Of a DNA stretch of 39,262 nucleotides, positions 18,142 through 21,401 are shown in pieces. Source of the stretch: Chlamydiota bacterium (GTDB taxonomy: Bacteria; Chlamydiota; Chlamydiia; Chlamydiales; SM23-39); the NCBI GenBank assembly GCA_050049995.1, contig JASFVE010000006.1, forward strand, positions 1 to 39,262. The letters run 5' to 3'. A program made the position numbers and the translations under genes. Below the pieces are notes generated by a model. The model did no database searches and was not told where the DNA came from. It was given only the letters and a program-made list of their open reading frames with translations. Every line of letters begins with the position of its first letter. Positions within the stretch are counted from its first letter, which is position 1.

Positions 18142-18801
18142 CTATTGAATAAACAACTCTAGCTCTGAAAGATGGGATATGGAAGGAAAACTATTTTGGT
18201 ATTCAGAAGGAGGCGTATGCTGGTATTTTTTAAACCAGATAGCGCTGATCCCAACATCTTGAGCAGAACGAAGGCCCGCTACTGAATCTTCCACTGCGAC
18301 TGCTTGGTCTGCTGAAATAGAGCAAGCTTCAAGAGCCATCTGATAAGGCTCTGGATGAGGTTTATGATTTTGCACTTTATCAGCACCAATAATGGTGAAG
18401 AAATAATTAGCAAGATTGCATCGATCTAGTATTTTTTTAATTGCACTAGTGGTCGAAGAAGAAACAATTAATAATTTGAAGGATTGTCTATATTTTTTAA
18501 GAATGTCCTGCAATTCCTTTGCAGGAAACTGAACATCGCTAATTAAGTAGTCGTAGTTAAGTTCTTTTTCTTCTTGCAGATTTTCACTTTTCATTGAAAT
18601 TGAAAAAACATTGATAAAATGATCAGCAATTTCTTTGTCAGAAATTCCAATTACATTTTCTAAGGAAAAGCTTGAATCTTGATATCCAAGCTTTTCCAGC
18701 GTTAATTCCCAAGCTTTAAAGTGAAGAGGTTCGAGATCAAAAAGGACACCATCAAAGTCAAAGAAGAGAGCCTGTATTTTTTGCTTCTGCAGTGATCTCA
18801 A
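18142..18801 (-). CDS. HAD-superfamily IA phosphatase (beta-PGM/RifM-like)
   Basis: Motif I DFDGV, motif II VSSS, KPHPEPY, motif IV VEDS..G. The exact start is uncertain. Confidence 0.88.
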   Translation of the reverse strand: MRSLQKQKIQALFFDFDGVLFDLEPLHFKAWELTLEKLGYQDSSFSLENVIGISDKEIADHFINVFSISMKSENLQEEKELNYDYLISDVQFPAKELQDILKKYRQSFKLLIVSSSTTSAIKKILDRCNLANYFFTIIGADKVQNHKPHPEPYQMALEACSISADQAVAVEDSVAGLRSAQDVGISAIWFKKYQHTPPSEYQNSFPSISHLSELELFIQ

Positions 18802-19237
18802 AAATTTCCCTCATTTTTTGTGAAAGACCAGCAGTATTGTTTAGCTCCTTCCATAGATAGCTAGAATGCTCTTCAGGAATAAGAACAATCGGTTCATATA
18901 GTTTTGGAAGAACTAAAAAATTAAACTGCCTTGTTAATCGACCACTTTGCGAGTGGTAATCAAAACTGCTAATATAGCTTTGCACAAGTTCTACTTCAAG
19001 AGTTGTTTCTTCTTGCACTTCTCTAACAAGGGCTTCAGCAAGACTTTCTCCTTCGTGGACCCCTCCACTGGGAAGCTCTTCAATGTTTGGCATAAAATCT
19101 GAAGGGTGCCTTTTCAAAAGAAGAACTGATTCCTTGTTTTTATCTAAAATGACTCCTCCCACTACAACTTTCTGTATGTCATCTCTTAGAGCTTGACTCA
19201 CTAGCTCCATTTCTAATTTTTTTGAATAAGGGCGCAT
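18758..19237 (-). CDS. NUDIX hydrolase
   Basis: Nudix box GGVHEGESLAEALVREVQEETTL. Start placed at ATG 19237 behind an AAAGGAG SD. Confidence 0.9.
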   Translation of the reverse strand: MRPYSKKLEMELVSQALRDDIQKVVVGGVILDKNKESVLLLKRHPSDFMPNIEELPSGGVHEGESLAEALVREVQEETTLEVELVQSYISSFDYHSQSGRLTRQFNFLVLPKLYEPIVLIPEEHSSYLWKELNNTAGLSQKMREIFEITAEAKNTGSLL

Positions 19238-20442
19238 AACTTCTCCTTTGCTTTTTTCCAAATTGTTTCAAAAGAGTCGACAAAAAAACGACCTTTAGAA
19301 CCCTTATAATCATCAATAGGAACAGAAATTTTTACAAGATGATCTGAAATAAATTTTGAATTTGGATAATCTCCTCTTATACAAATGTCATTTTGGTAGG
19401 AGTACACAGGAGAAATAGGTTTTTGAAAAATTGGATACCTGTGCAAACAGGAAGTAGAGTTTGGAATATCTATATCCTTAAATCCAAAAGAGTGCATACA
19501 ACTCACTAATTCTTCTCTAGAAAAAGGAGCTATTTTAGGGTCTATGGTAAAGGTAAATGCATAATAGGCAGAGAGAGAAAAATCTCCAGCTCCTTTTAAA
19601 AACTTGATCCCATCAACTTCTCCAATAATACTTTGTATTCGTTCAGCATTGCGGTTTTTAGCGTTGATCCACTGTTCTAAGTAATCAAGTTGCTTATTGG
19701 CAATGGCAAGGCCAAGAGCCGCTGGGCGGTATTTAAGTCCTGTGCCTGTTATAGCATATTGATATAACGGAGAGGAAGGATCCATTTCTTGTAAGGCCCG
19801 CTTGTTGAAGTGTCCTAGCAGCTGCGCTTTGTCATAACATGCACGATCATTTGTAACCAATATTCCTGCCTCACCTGCAGCAATAATTTTTTGTGACTGA
19901 AGGCTCCAAATACCTATGTCGCCAAAAGTGCCAACATGCTGCCCTTTATAAGTTGCCCCATGCGCATGGGAACAATCTTCCACTAATCGAAGGCTGTATT
20001 TTTGACATCTATCTAAAATCGCATCCATTTCACAAGGATTCCCCCACATATGGGTAAGAACGACTGCTGTTGTCTTTTTGGTTATAAGTCTATCAATTTC
20101 TGTAGCTGCCAGCCCCCCATTAGGATCGCAGTCTGCTAAAACAGGTACCACTCCTAATTGGAAAAGAGGCATAGCTGTAGCAAAAAAAGTGTAGTCCGTG
20201 CAAATGACCTCATCACCCGGCCCAAGGTCTAGTGCATAAAATGCCGAATGCAGAGCAGCTGTTCCACTTGAGGTAACAAGAGCAAACTTACTTTTATGAA
20301 TTTCTTTGAACTTGTCTTCGAATTCTTTTGTGATGCCAGAGCGATCATAAGTTCCAAGCGTAGTGTGTAATTGCTGAACGACAGCCTCTTCGATTTCCTC
20401 AGTAATGATAGGCCAAGGATATGTTATTTCATTTGACTCCAT
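19213..20442 (-). CDS. DegT/DnrJ/EryC1/StrS-family PLP aminotransferase (RifK/BtrR/StsC-like subtype)
   Basis: SSGTAALH, TFFATA, THMWG, EDCSHAHGA, PLP-Lys motif WSLQSQKIIAAGEAG. Confidence 0.92.
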   Translation of the reverse strand: MESNEITYPWPIITEEIEEAVVQQLHTTLGTYDRSGITKEFEDKFKEIHKSKFALVTSSGTAALHSAFYALDLGPGDEVICTDYTFFATAMPLFQLGVVPVLADCDPNGGLAATEIDRLITKKTTAVVLTHMWGNPCEMDAILDRCQKYSLRLVEDCSHAHGATYKGQHVGTFGDIGIWSLQSQKIIAAGEAGILVTNDRACYDKAQLLGHFNKRALQEMDPSSPLYQYAITGTGLKYRPAALGLAIANKQLDYLEQWINAKNRNAERIQSIIGEVDGIKFLKGAGDFSLSAYYAFTFTIDPKIAPFSREELVSCMHSFGFKDIDIPNSTSCLHRYPIFQKPISPVYSYQNDICIRGDYPNSKFISDHLVKISVPIDDYKGSKGRFFVDSFETIWKKAKEKLCALIQKN

Positions 20443-21401
20443 TATCGAATCCTTTTGTAGAGTTGTTCTATAAGTGCCACAATCACTGCGTGATGATTGA
20501 GATGTTGCTCAGAAAAAAAAGGACAACTAGATTGCTCAAAATAGAAATCAAACATTTTTTGTTTGTTCAATGGATCAGAAATTTCTATTTGTTCCAAAAG
20601 GTTTCCTTTTCGGTCCTTTATTTCTATAAAACCGTTTTGCATAGTTAACCTCCCATTGCTTCCCAAGACTTCGAAATATTCGCGTTTACTTTCAGCATAT
20701 CGATTAAGACGTATGCTTCCATGTAGCTGGTTATTTGAGTATCGACAAGTAATAGTTGCTGCATCTTCTAAATGAGAGCGCCCAGAATAGTCATAGCAAT
20801 AGGAAAGAGCTCCAGAAATTTCTTCAGGCTGTCCAAAAAAATTGATTATCACATCTAGAATGTGATATCCCATATCAATGATGACGCCGCCCCCAGATAA
20901 AGAAAAATCACTTCGCCATCCCTTTGTTCTTTCTGAAATCCCAAGATAATATTGATAGTGAAAATCGTAGATCTTCCCTAAACGGTACAAGTTCTTTTGT
21001 ACAAAGAAAAATGCTTCGTGAAAAGGCCTTTGAACAATCGTAAAAATATGGTTTTTCTCTTGCTCTTTATATCTGTTGACTTCCACTTGAGTTAACGCAA
21101 GTGGTTTTTCTTTGATCACAGTTTTATTAGCGTTAATAAGAGGTAAGGTAGCGGAAAAATGGTAAGAGTGAGGAATGCATATAACAGCTGTTGTAAAAGA
21201 ACATTGCTCTATAGCCTCTTCTACAGTGTGAAATAAGGGAATCGAACTTTGATTATAAGCCTCTTTTAAAGCTTTATAATTAGTATCTACAAGACCACTG
21301 ATCTTATATAGCTTTGAAAGAAGATGAAAATATTCTTTTCCTTGGCGTCCTGCGGCACCAATTATGATAATACTGTTCTGACTTTTTTTGAGTGCAACCA
21401 C
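20442..21401 (-). CDS. Gfo/Idh/MocA-family NAD(P)-dependent sugar/cyclitol dehydrogenase
   Basis: IIGAAGRQG, IPHSYH, KEKPLA, SGGGVIIDMGYHILD. Stop/start overlap TAATG with the aminotransferase. Confidence 0.9.
   Translation of the reverse strand: MVALKKSQNSIIIIGAAGRQGKEYFHLLSKLYKISGLVDTNYKALKEAYNQSSIPLFHTVEEAIEQCSFTTAVICIPHSYHFSATLPLINANKTVIKEKPLALTQVEVNRYKEQEKNHIFTIVQRPFHEAFFFVQKNLYRLGKIYDFHYQYYLGISERTKGWRSDFSLSGGGVIIDMGYHILDVIINFFGQPEEISGALSYCYDYSGRSHLEDAATITCRYSNNQLHGSIRLNRYAESKREYFEVLGSNGRLTMQNGFIEIKDRKGNLLEQIEISDPLNKQKMFDFYFEQSSCPFFSEQHLNHHAVIVALIEQLYKRIR

Follow-up and report, generated by a model that had tools for sequence, protein, structure and literature searches.

The Gene Cassette between pit and glgP

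The subject of this analysis is a set of four genes in a 39,262-nucleotide stretch of the genome of a Chlamydiota bacterium (contig JASFVE010000006.1, positions 1 to 39,262; hereafter the window). The genes lie on the minus strand between the phosphate transporter gene pit and the glycogen phosphorylase gene glgP, and they probably serve the synthesis of an aminonucleoside. In order of transcription they are the following (aa, amino acids; NTP, nucleoside triphosphate; PLP, pyridoxal phosphate):

20442..21401, minus strand: NAD-dependent Gfo/Idh/MocA dehydrogenase (Gfo), 319 aa, assigned by Pfam, profiles and tree; predicted NTP 3'-dehydrogenase of the Pur10/AdgB type
19213..20442, minus strand: PLP-dependent DegT-family aminotransferase, 409 aa, of the AdgC/Pur4 type; predicted 3'-keto-nucleotide aminotransferase
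18758..19237, minus strand: NUDIX hydrolase in the AdgD/Pur7 position, 159 aa from the ATG, or 167 aa from a TTG at 19261
18142..18801, minus strand: HAD-superfamily phosphatase, 219 aa, with a DFDGV motif; not homologous to Pur3/AdgE

The overlaps described in an earlier reading of the same letters (the original prediction) are all present in the sequence. The dehydrogenase and aminotransferase genes are coupled by a TAATG at 20442, the aminotransferase and NUDIX genes overlap by 25 nt (19213-19237), and the NUDIX and HAD genes by 44 nt (18758-18801). The respective Pfam E-values were 1e-12 to 2e-17 for GFO_IDH_MocA, 1e-68 for DegT_DnrJ_EryC1, 9e-15 for NUDIX and 3e-29 for HAD_2, and none of the four proteins scored high enough to be assigned to any named NCBIfam equivalog. 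The catalytic motifs are intact, i.e., the PLP lysine K185, the EKP motif, the NUDIX glutamates and DFDGV.

Affiliation of the Aminotransferase

Two characterized systems served as the main references. The genes adgB-E, homologs of pur10, pur4, pur7 and pur3, produced 3'-amino-3'-deoxyguanosine (ADG) in Escherichia coli (PMC9239236, available text), and Pur10, Pur4, Pur7 and Pur3 turn ATP into 3'-amino-3'-deoxyadenosine (PMC5884247 and PMC11641026, available text). The Photorhabdus luminescens protein P0275 starts with MKLVIIGC, the translation of the adgB cloning primer of PMC9239236, and is thus AdgB. The protein with the next accession (P0237; MCW7763731/32 for the pair) was taken as AdgC, so that the adjacency in Photorhabdus rests on consecutive accession numbers.

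Under the same program and the same database size, the aminotransferase of the window scored 290 bits against AdgC (38% identity over 394 aa), 180 bits against a Pur4-type protein and at most 160 bits against 57 matching PDB sequences. The latter values include 132 bits for the glutamine:scyllo-inositol transaminase 7b0d, 130 for BtrR, 94 for RifK, 80 for 7kz3 and 61 for NtdA. A profile made without the enterobacterial rows and their nearest relatives gave 477 bits for AdgC; none of 88 generic DegT proteins exceeded 229. The trees were made without RifK, NtdA, BtrR and StsC sequences, and the outgroup row L187 (G253) of the aminotransferase trees serves for rooting only. In the 64-row aminotransferase tree (80 rows, 20 of them dropped, and four added), the window protein and AdgC belong to a 39-row clade (support 100/99), and together with the Pur4-type rows they form part of a 47-row clade (98/94). 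Scores, leave-out profile and clades therefore agree on a DegT protein of the AdgC/Pur4 clade, which is one of the marks by which an Adg/Pur cassette was recognized.

K185 is invariant in a 32-row family alignment, and D156 and H159 are conserved as well. The lysine motif WSLQSQKIIAAGEAG is present, as originally reported, but its pattern (SxQxxK..GEGG), read at that time as a mark of the RifK/BtrR/StsC enzymes, is not diagnostic, because it also occurs in AdgC as WSFQGKKILTSGEGG and in the Pur4-type protein as FSLQANKAVFAGEGG. The motifs SIYDRSG, GH[FY]NKR and TGxGLKxR are specific to the family of the window cassette and are not those of kanosamine or aminocyclitol enzymes. The AlphaFold model of the aminotransferase is confident, with a predicted local distance difference test score of 95.5, but has no bearing on the substrate. 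Members of this DegT subfamily occur in bacteria of the candidate phyla radiation (CPR), a DPANN archaeon, actinomycetes, cyanobacteria and enterobacteria.

Affiliation of the Dehydrogenase, NUDIX Hydrolase and HAD Phosphatase

The dehydrogenase retains its Rossmann motif GAAGRQG, EKP (98-100) and D176..H180. It scored 159-186 bits (31-33% identity) against Pur10-type proteins, 67 against AdgB and 44 against the best PDB chain. In a 37-row tree, from which 16 of 53 rows had been removed as near-duplicates or long branches, it forms a clade with the Pur10-type proteins and one metagenome protein (99/100), and the motifs GxxGxQGxEY and VQR.F are common to it and the Pur10-type proteins. A profile holding neither the window protein nor AdgB scored the former at 215 and the latter at 246, and the best PDB chain reached 142 on the full profile. 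On the profile of the cassette dehydrogenases, AdgB, although outside that profile, reached 248 and inositol dehydrogenases at most 119. The enzyme is accordingly a Gfo of the AdgB/Pur10 group directly linked to the aminotransferase, a second mark of an Adg/Pur cassette.

Over 116-131 aa, the NUDIX protein shows 39% identity to the proteins in AdgD position of two stinkbug-symbiont plasmids, which were compared in place of the Photorhabdus AdgD itself. It shares its motifs with 12 cassette NUDIX proteins, in agreement with an AdgD/Pur7-type enzyme, and its similarity to Pur7-type NUDIX proteins is weak (26 bits). The best NCBIfam matches of the HAD protein are sugar-phosphate phosphatases, all below cut-off. 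The single inositol monophosphatase (IMPase) match of the genome sits on another contig. The cassette is regarded as a variant and not as a plain member of the Adg/Pur type, since it contains neither a phosphatase of the Pur3/AdgE type nor the exporter and carries a coupled HAD gene instead.

Pur-Type Reference Clusters

The Pur-type rows were obtained by a dehydrogenase profile search of 401 genomes from one streptomycete-type genus (that of G187), which matched 27 genomes, including a second tier of 10 at 229-258 bits. Nine of these 10 loci and one weaker match were retrieved, and genes for NUDIX, Gfo, DegT and IMPase occur together in all nine. The aminotransferase profile (E<=1e-95) matched 20 of the 401 genomes and misses the Pur4-type proteins, which score about 290-310 bits. 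In genome G350 (locus L246) the order is M28 peptidase, NUDIX, Gfo, an 858-codon open reading frame (ORF) without Pfam match, DegT, methyltransferase, IMPase and GNAT. This content fits a puromycin/cystocin-type cluster. Pur6 is described as an 84-kDa protein with no known domain (PMC11641026, available text).

Eight further streptomycete-type genomes (L244, L245, L247-L252) have NUDIX-Gfo-DegT-(methyltransferase)-IMPase with no Pur6-like gene, an added carbamoyltransferase in at least three and a second methyltransferase in some; by gene content, they probably represent an uncharacterized type of aminonucleoside cluster. In a search of 151 Actinomycetota, no member of the core family defined below was found.

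Neighborhoods of Related Loci

The core family comprises the 42 of 80 metagenome loci that score at least 400 bits, and it was compared with 79 generic DegT loci and 38 mid-scoring loci, the denominators being loci with enough flank. A Gfo gene is directly upstream in 24 of 33 core loci, against 0/76 generic and 4/26 mid-scoring ones, and a NUDIX gene follows immediately, or is fused, in 15 of 29 (0/77 generic, 1/27 mid-scoring). Both occur together in 12/26 core and 0/74 generic loci. Gfo-DegT pairs are also found in O-antigen loci, e.g., wbpB/wbpE, which makes the association with NUDIX the more informative one. Furthermore, a thymidylate kinase gene lies within 4.5 kb in 8/16 core loci versus 1/60 generic loci, and a radical SAM gene or domain is upstream in 4/33 versus 1/76. 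Other neighbors of the relatives are uridine kinase, nucleoside diphosphate (NDP) kinase, cytidine deaminase, thymidine phosphorylase, MazG and amidinotransferase. No glycosyltransferase was seen among 70 neighbor proteins scanned (picked from 394), though a Streptomyces plasmid locus (L091) does have such genes. The possibility, named in the original prediction as counting against it, that the cassettes would lie in glycan loci or fail to co-occur elsewhere is thus not borne out: Gfo-DegT-NUDIX recurs without glycosyltransferases in CPR bacteria, actinomycetes and stinkbug-symbiont plasmids, in the company of nucleotide metabolism. Of the 150 best matches of a library-wide search, 41 long ones were scanned; Gfo-DegT fusions prevail among them, and in two (P0356, P0391) NUDIX is fused on as a third part.

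One example is pBMSBPS2 of Candidatus Pantoea carbekii, the obligate symbiont of the brown marmorated stink bug (L093, NZ_CP010909.1), a plasmid of 6,287 bp whose entire cargo besides repA is Gfo-DegT-NUDIX-IMPase; here, too, an exporter of the major facilitator superfamily (MFS) is absent. A plasmid of the Plautia stali symbiont (L094:7025-10472) has the same Gfo-DegT-NUDIX order with IMPase in fourth place. Both match adgB-E in composition, and pBMSBPS2 is probably a plasmid for ADG that has gone unnoticed. In the P. carbekii genome paper its genes are interpreted as MutT/SuhB stress genes (PMC4350177, available text), and the available part of a second stinkbug-symbiont paper makes no mention of it. 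As a separate observation, the pBMSBPS2 aminotransferase is 72% identical to the Photorhabdus protein P0134, and homologs of the pBMSBPS2 type are found in the symbionts Pantoea sp. Nvir, Aalb, Mhis and Eser, Ca. P. persica and the Plautia stali symbiont, several of them on ~6 kb contigs.

Insertion, Transfer and Selection

The other features of the locus are the following:

16694..18112, plus strand: pit phosphate transporter, left flank, outside the system
20918..20960, no strand: 43 bases present here and missing in a sister population with a broken dehydrogenase frame
21520..22800, minus strand: FAD-binding oxidoreductase/monooxygenase-like protein, 426 aa, in the same insertion, 118 bp upstream of the dehydrogenase
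23018..25576, plus strand: glgP glycogen phosphorylase, right flank, outside the system

In the four same-family genomes in which pit was found (of five searched), pit and glgP are 67-324 bp apart, while the gap in this chlamydia is 4.9 kb and holds five genes. Since the two genes are neighbors in the relatives, the 4.9 kb represent an insertion. The site had been recognized correctly from the start, with four genes counted and the FAD-binding gene missed. The genome of this chlamydia (1.88 Mb, 98% complete) contains one DegT gene.

The nearest locus (L001) encodes an aminotransferase that is 98% identical. Ratios of nonsynonymous to synonymous substitution (dN/dS) against it are 0.04, 0.07, 0.07 and 0.12 for the four cassette genes, compared with 0.02-0.05 for the housekeeping flanks; the four genes are under purifying selection. 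In this sister population the 43 dehydrogenase bases are gone and the frame is broken, in two independent runs and several assemblies. The low dN/dS indicates that the loss is recent. Conclusively, the four-gene cassette is real, selected and horizontally gained.

A recent transfer was rejected, as GC content at third codon positions is normal (z 0-0.9) and codon fit slightly low (7th-45th percentile); the insertion is therefore old or came from a donor of like composition. Phage origin or carriage was not supported: a viral-contig search gave one locus, a generic DegT at 28%, and GenBank phages gave 78 records, with 26-32% identity in the ten matches listed. Synonymous divergence from L001 is lower in the dehydrogenase, aminotransferase, NUDIX and FAD genes (0.13-0.20) than in the HAD gene and the flanks (0.25-0.57), and it is possible that the block 18758-22800 was exchanged later between the two lineages.

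Within Chlamydiota, aminotransferase matches at E<=1e-80 were found in three of 300 scored genomes, this one included, and a search of 30 relatives added G001 and G016. One of the three, the weaker match of G836 (275 bits), falls outside the clade and was not counted. The order in G016 is Gfo-DegT-NUDIX-choline-kinase-like-DUF2608, and G012 has a Gfo/DegT hybrid lacking the parts between, followed by NUDIX, uridine kinase, DUF2608 and cytidine deaminase. A single origin of the copies of the window, G016 and G012 was rejected by the approximately unbiased test (p 7e-5); as the three do not form one clade, at least two acquisitions took place in chlamydiae. DUF2608 genes stand directly behind the cassettes of G016 and G012 (L188:5619-6446; L189:10375-11175), where they are possibly the phosphatase partner.

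Proposed Pathway

Scores, profiles, trees and neighborhoods place the first three enzymes with AdgB/C/D and Pur10/4/7, and for this reason a 3'-amino-3'-deoxyribonucleoside is a more likely product than kanosamine or inosamine. The original prediction had seen a co-transcribed-looking pathway that oxidizes, aminates and dephosphorylates. That logic is retained, and the same four lines of evidence move the substrate class from sugar to nucleotide. As judged from homology, and with a probability of roughly 0.6, the cassette would make a 3'-amino-3'-deoxyribonucleoside, most likely 3'-amino-3'-deoxyadenosine, as a prodrug that terminates RNA chains after re-phosphorylation by another cell. The underlying 3'-amino-nucleotide chemistry, counted over this proposal and the intracellular variant discussed below, is quite probable, and secretion as a prodrug is somewhat likelier than its opposite. 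A small-molecule antimetabolite, as originally suggested, is plausible, though its identity is unlikely to be kanosamine or inosamine.

In the first step, the 3'-OH of an NTP ribose would be oxidized with NAD. The resulting 3'-ketone would be aminated by the PLP enzyme, and the NUDIX hydrolase would cut the 3'-amino-NTP to the monophosphate, a step that would also shield the producer from its own terminator. The HAD protein, as a 5'-monophosphatase and non-homologous stand-in for Pur3/AdgE, may then take off the last phosphate, which is the weakest step of the scheme. The nucleoside might finally be released into the host cell or inclusion and activated by salvage kinases of the host or a competitor, a speculative step. 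For ADG in E. coli, Gsk, Gmk and Ndk are described as the re-phosphorylating kinases, and the triphosphate (ADG-TP) is described as stopping RNA elongation (PMC9239236, available text). Host NTPs could enter as substrate via NTT-family nucleotide transporters, of which the genome has three full copies and one partial match. As regards self-resistance through a lack of salvage kinases, the genome has no dNK and no uridine-kinase match, but two PfkB-family kinases are present. ATP is favored because the dehydrogenase, the first enzyme to meet the substrate, is Pur10-like; the aminotransferase and NUDIX are nearer to the GTP pathway, so the odds between the two bases are about even.

Comparison with Known Systems

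The closest known system is the ADG operon adgABCDE of P. luminescens. It has the same order of dehydrogenase, aminotransferase, NUDIX and phosphatase, its aminotransferase joins that of the window in one well-supported clade (38% identity, 100/99), its dehydrogenase belongs to the same profile-defined subfamily, and both sets are devoid of coupling and tailoring enzymes. In contrast to it, the cassette has a HAD protein instead of the IMPase-type AdgE and no MFS exporter, its dehydrogenase is only 24-26% identical to AdgB and nearer to Pur10, and its host is an obligate intracellular chlamydia.

The same four reactions predicted here make the aminonucleoside core of puromycin, cystocin and A201A through Pur10, Pur4, Pur7 and Pur3 (PMC5884247; PMC11641026; available text). 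The dehydrogenase forms a supported clade with the Pur10-type proteins and the aminotransferase a wider one with the Pur4-type proteins. On the contrary, gene order and phosphatase differ, the NUDIX resembles the Pur7 type weakly, and the cassette is without Pur6 synthetase, Pur5 methyltransferase, Pac acetyltransferase, NapH and Pur8 (Pur6, Pur5 and Pac are absent from the whole pit-glgP insertion, while the reference cluster L246 has all three). It therefore cannot make puromycin-like peptidyl nucleosides.

NtdABC/KabABC, RifL/K/M and BtrR/StsC share the superfamilies (Gfo/Idh/MocA, DegT and HAD) and the logic of oxidation, amination and dephosphorylation, at a much lower similarity (61-132 bits). 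The kanosamine and aminocyclitol pathways are not known to have a NUDIX partner. Prokaryotic viperins, which make ddhNTP (3'-deoxy-3',4'-didehydro-NTP), are comparable in that the predicted product would likewise have no usable 3'-OH and would stop RNA polymerases, and in the nucleotide kinases nearby, as seen in cassette relatives. The cassette differs in its chemistry, oxidation and amination instead of radical dehydration, and contains no viperin gene.

The pathway had been called a candidate new one; its type is already known from the puromycin core and ADG. A literature search with little coverage of subscription papers turned up no account of a cassette of this kind, be it in chlamydiae, in stinkbug symbionts or in phage defence.

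Points against the Proposed Pathway and Alternative Readings

Several findings weigh against the proposed aminonucleoside pathway. The aminotransferase belongs to a separate subclade of 15 rows (94/100), none of which is characterized, and the 51% identical protein of L091 adjoins glycosyltransferases and thymidine phosphorylase with no NUDIX beside it. Identities to characterized enzymes are only 24-39%, so base and substrate class are extrapolated, and the cassette is a mosaic, its dehydrogenase nearer to Pur10 and its aminotransferase and NUDIX nearer to AdgC/D, which blurs the choice between ATP and GTP. A Pur3/AdgE-type IMPase gene is not in the cassette, and the HAD gene that takes the fourth place accompanies the aminotransferase in no other core locus compared; a weaker HAD homolog (44%) in G978 has no cassette within 3.6 kb of flank. 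No MFS exporter of the AdgA/Pur8 type lies between pit and glgP. The reference cluster L246 was recognized by its gene content and not by name, and the Gfo and NUDIX profiles behind the neighborhood counts were built from these same neighborhoods, whose loci are not independent. Lastly, the frame-breaking 43-bp deletion of the sister population implies that the pathway is dispensable.

The best surviving alternative, although unlikely, is that the 3'-amino-NTP itself is active and is kept inside as a viperin-like terminator against phages or mobile elements, with NUDIX and HAD merely clearing it. The lack of an exporter suits this view, as do the thymidylate, NDP and uridine kinases that are frequent beside the relatives, since PADLOC lists 'viperins associated with kinases'. 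Two relatives (L102, L121) adjoin TIR-TPR or restriction-modification genes, and the Streptomyces trio follows a divergent long ORF, annotated as a helix-turn-helix (HTH) regulator in two plasmid cases. Moreover, radical SAM replaces the dehydrogenase in the 4/33 core loci mentioned, and two such fusions weakly match pVip profiles (E 3e-20, 2e-22), though these matches span only the N-terminal radical SAM core. Against it, two dephosphorylating enzymes and no kinase are the design of the secreted ADG pathway. PADLOC 2.0 matched no catalogued system and none of its models matches the dehydrogenase, aminotransferase or HAD; only the NUDIX matches a candidate model (PDC-S07, E 3e-13).

Slightly less probable still is another nucleotide-linked substrate or the reverse direction, i.e., the making of an aminoribosyl building block, or the detoxification or salvage of an aminonucleoside met in the host. 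Oxidation and amination are reversible in principle, the subclade of the aminotransferase is uncharacterized, the Streptomyces plasmid member has glycosyltransferases before it and thymidine phosphorylase after it, and other relatives add amidinotransferase, carbamoyltransferase or methyltransferases. Such a role is opposed by the lack of any tailoring, coupling (Pur6-like) or uptake gene in the cassette and by a gene order that is that of the four-gene ADG operon, which makes a free nucleoside.

The aminosugar or aminocyclitol pathway of the original prediction, in which NDP-glucose or glucose-6-phosphate would yield kanosamine, or inositol would yield inosamine, with NUDIX freeing the nucleoside monophosphate and HAD the phosphate, is very improbable and, on homology, largely refuted. 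Gfo, DegT and HAD are indeed the enzyme set of NtdC/NtdA/NtdB and RifL/K/M, the HAD protein leans to sugar-phosphate phosphatases, and BtrR ranks second among solved structures for the family profile (229 bits). Nevertheless, NtdA and RifK rank near the bottom of the PDB matches, the values for NtdA/KabA and RifK (61, 80 and 94 bits) being below most O-antigen enzymes, and BtrR/StsC reach 130-132 bits versus 290 for AdgC. The iolG model gives 58 bits against a cut-off of 355, inositol dehydrogenases stay far below AdgB on the dehydrogenase profile (119 versus 248), the lysine motif is common to AdgC and Pur4-type proteins, and the relatives' neighbors are nucleoside and nucleotide enzymes. An O-antigen locus is rejected in accordance with the original prediction, as the insertion has no glycosyl- or nucleotidyltransferase and scores and neighborhoods are also contrary.

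Possible Biological Meaning

With the aminonucleoside pathway as proposed, a 3.3-kb cassette predicts one defined product, an RNA-chain-terminating nucleoside analogue, and the ADG/puromycin core, which was described in a small number of producers from soil or among nematode symbionts, turns out to be a mobile module widespread in CPR and symbiotic lineages. A broader, rather doubtful hypothesis is that small-genome host-dependent bacteria (environmental chlamydiae at least twice independently, stinkbug gut symbionts and CPR) and DPANN archaea have in common a minimal machinery for making a chain terminator. In the present case, it might convert imported host ATP to 3'-amino-3'-deoxyadenosine, activated by host kinases, as a viperin stand-in that blocks giant-virus transcription or rival symbionts. 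If true, chlamydial defensive symbiosis would gain a definite molecule, and the stinkbug-symbiont plasmid pBMSBPS2 would have to be seen as one dedicated to an antibiotic. A chlamydial symbiont blocks giant-virus factories in amoebae (PMC9457554, available text). Chlamydiae carry biosynthetic clusters of unknown product (bioRxiv 10.1101/2021.12.21.473556), and the available main text of that work does not contain the words 'nucleoside', 'aminotransferase', 'puromycin' or 'NUDIX'.

The FAD-Binding Gene and Other Observations

The family of the FAD-binding protein is common in Chlamydiota, and its gene was seen beside no other cassette among the neighborhoods compared; it is probably not part of the pathway. 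The protein (21520-22800) has a long low-structure N-terminus, and its Atlas neighbors include clusters from Chlamydiota, oxidoreductases of actinobacteria and monooxygenase domains of the MICAL type (TM about 0.6-0.7). It could be a secreted chlamydial protein. Between this gene and the dehydrogenase, an inverted repeat, GTAGGGAGTT...AACTCCCTTGC (minus strand, 21465-21503), was spotted by eye and is absent from the list of the terminator scan; it may end the FAD transcript. The scan itself gave 16 promoter-like sites versus 14.9 expected and two terminators versus 3.3 expected. A DUF2608 gene lies just beyond glgP (25559-26329).

Providencia rettgeri/huaxiensis and Proteus terrae/mirabilis commonly have genes like adgB and adgC under consecutive accession numbers (P0125, P0130, P0257, P0263, P0264), and such genes also occur in Xenorhabdus and Salinivibrio. 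In P0112, P0114, P0118, P0119 and P0352 and in L100, L104, L128 and L131, the position of the dehydrogenase before the aminotransferase is occupied by a radical SAM gene or N-terminal domain, a candidate radical 3'-dehydrogenase. In streptomycete genomes and plasmids (L216-L227, L233, L095, L235), a Gfo-DegT-NUDIX trio with no phosphatase follows a divergent ORF of ~440 codons, the HTH-annotated one of the two plasmid cases. Its insertion sites vary, and the trio looks like cargo of mobile elements.

Cassettes with extra amidinotransferase and thymidylate kinase genes are found in L112, L116, L118 and L128, and L118:4706-5803 matches HsvA, SxtG and inosamine-phosphate amidinotransferase at E<=4e-54. 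In Bacillus thuringiensis/cereus plasmids (L092) and in L113, a related aminotransferase occurs with SDR, MFS, MazG-like, an extra class I tRNA synthetase and GNAT, possibly a tRNA-synthetase-inhibitor cluster with a self-resistance copy. The cassette of L102:3543-9670 adjoins a TIR-TPR-AIRS protein and that of L121:1519-7134 a restriction-modification pair, contexts that hint at a defence island.

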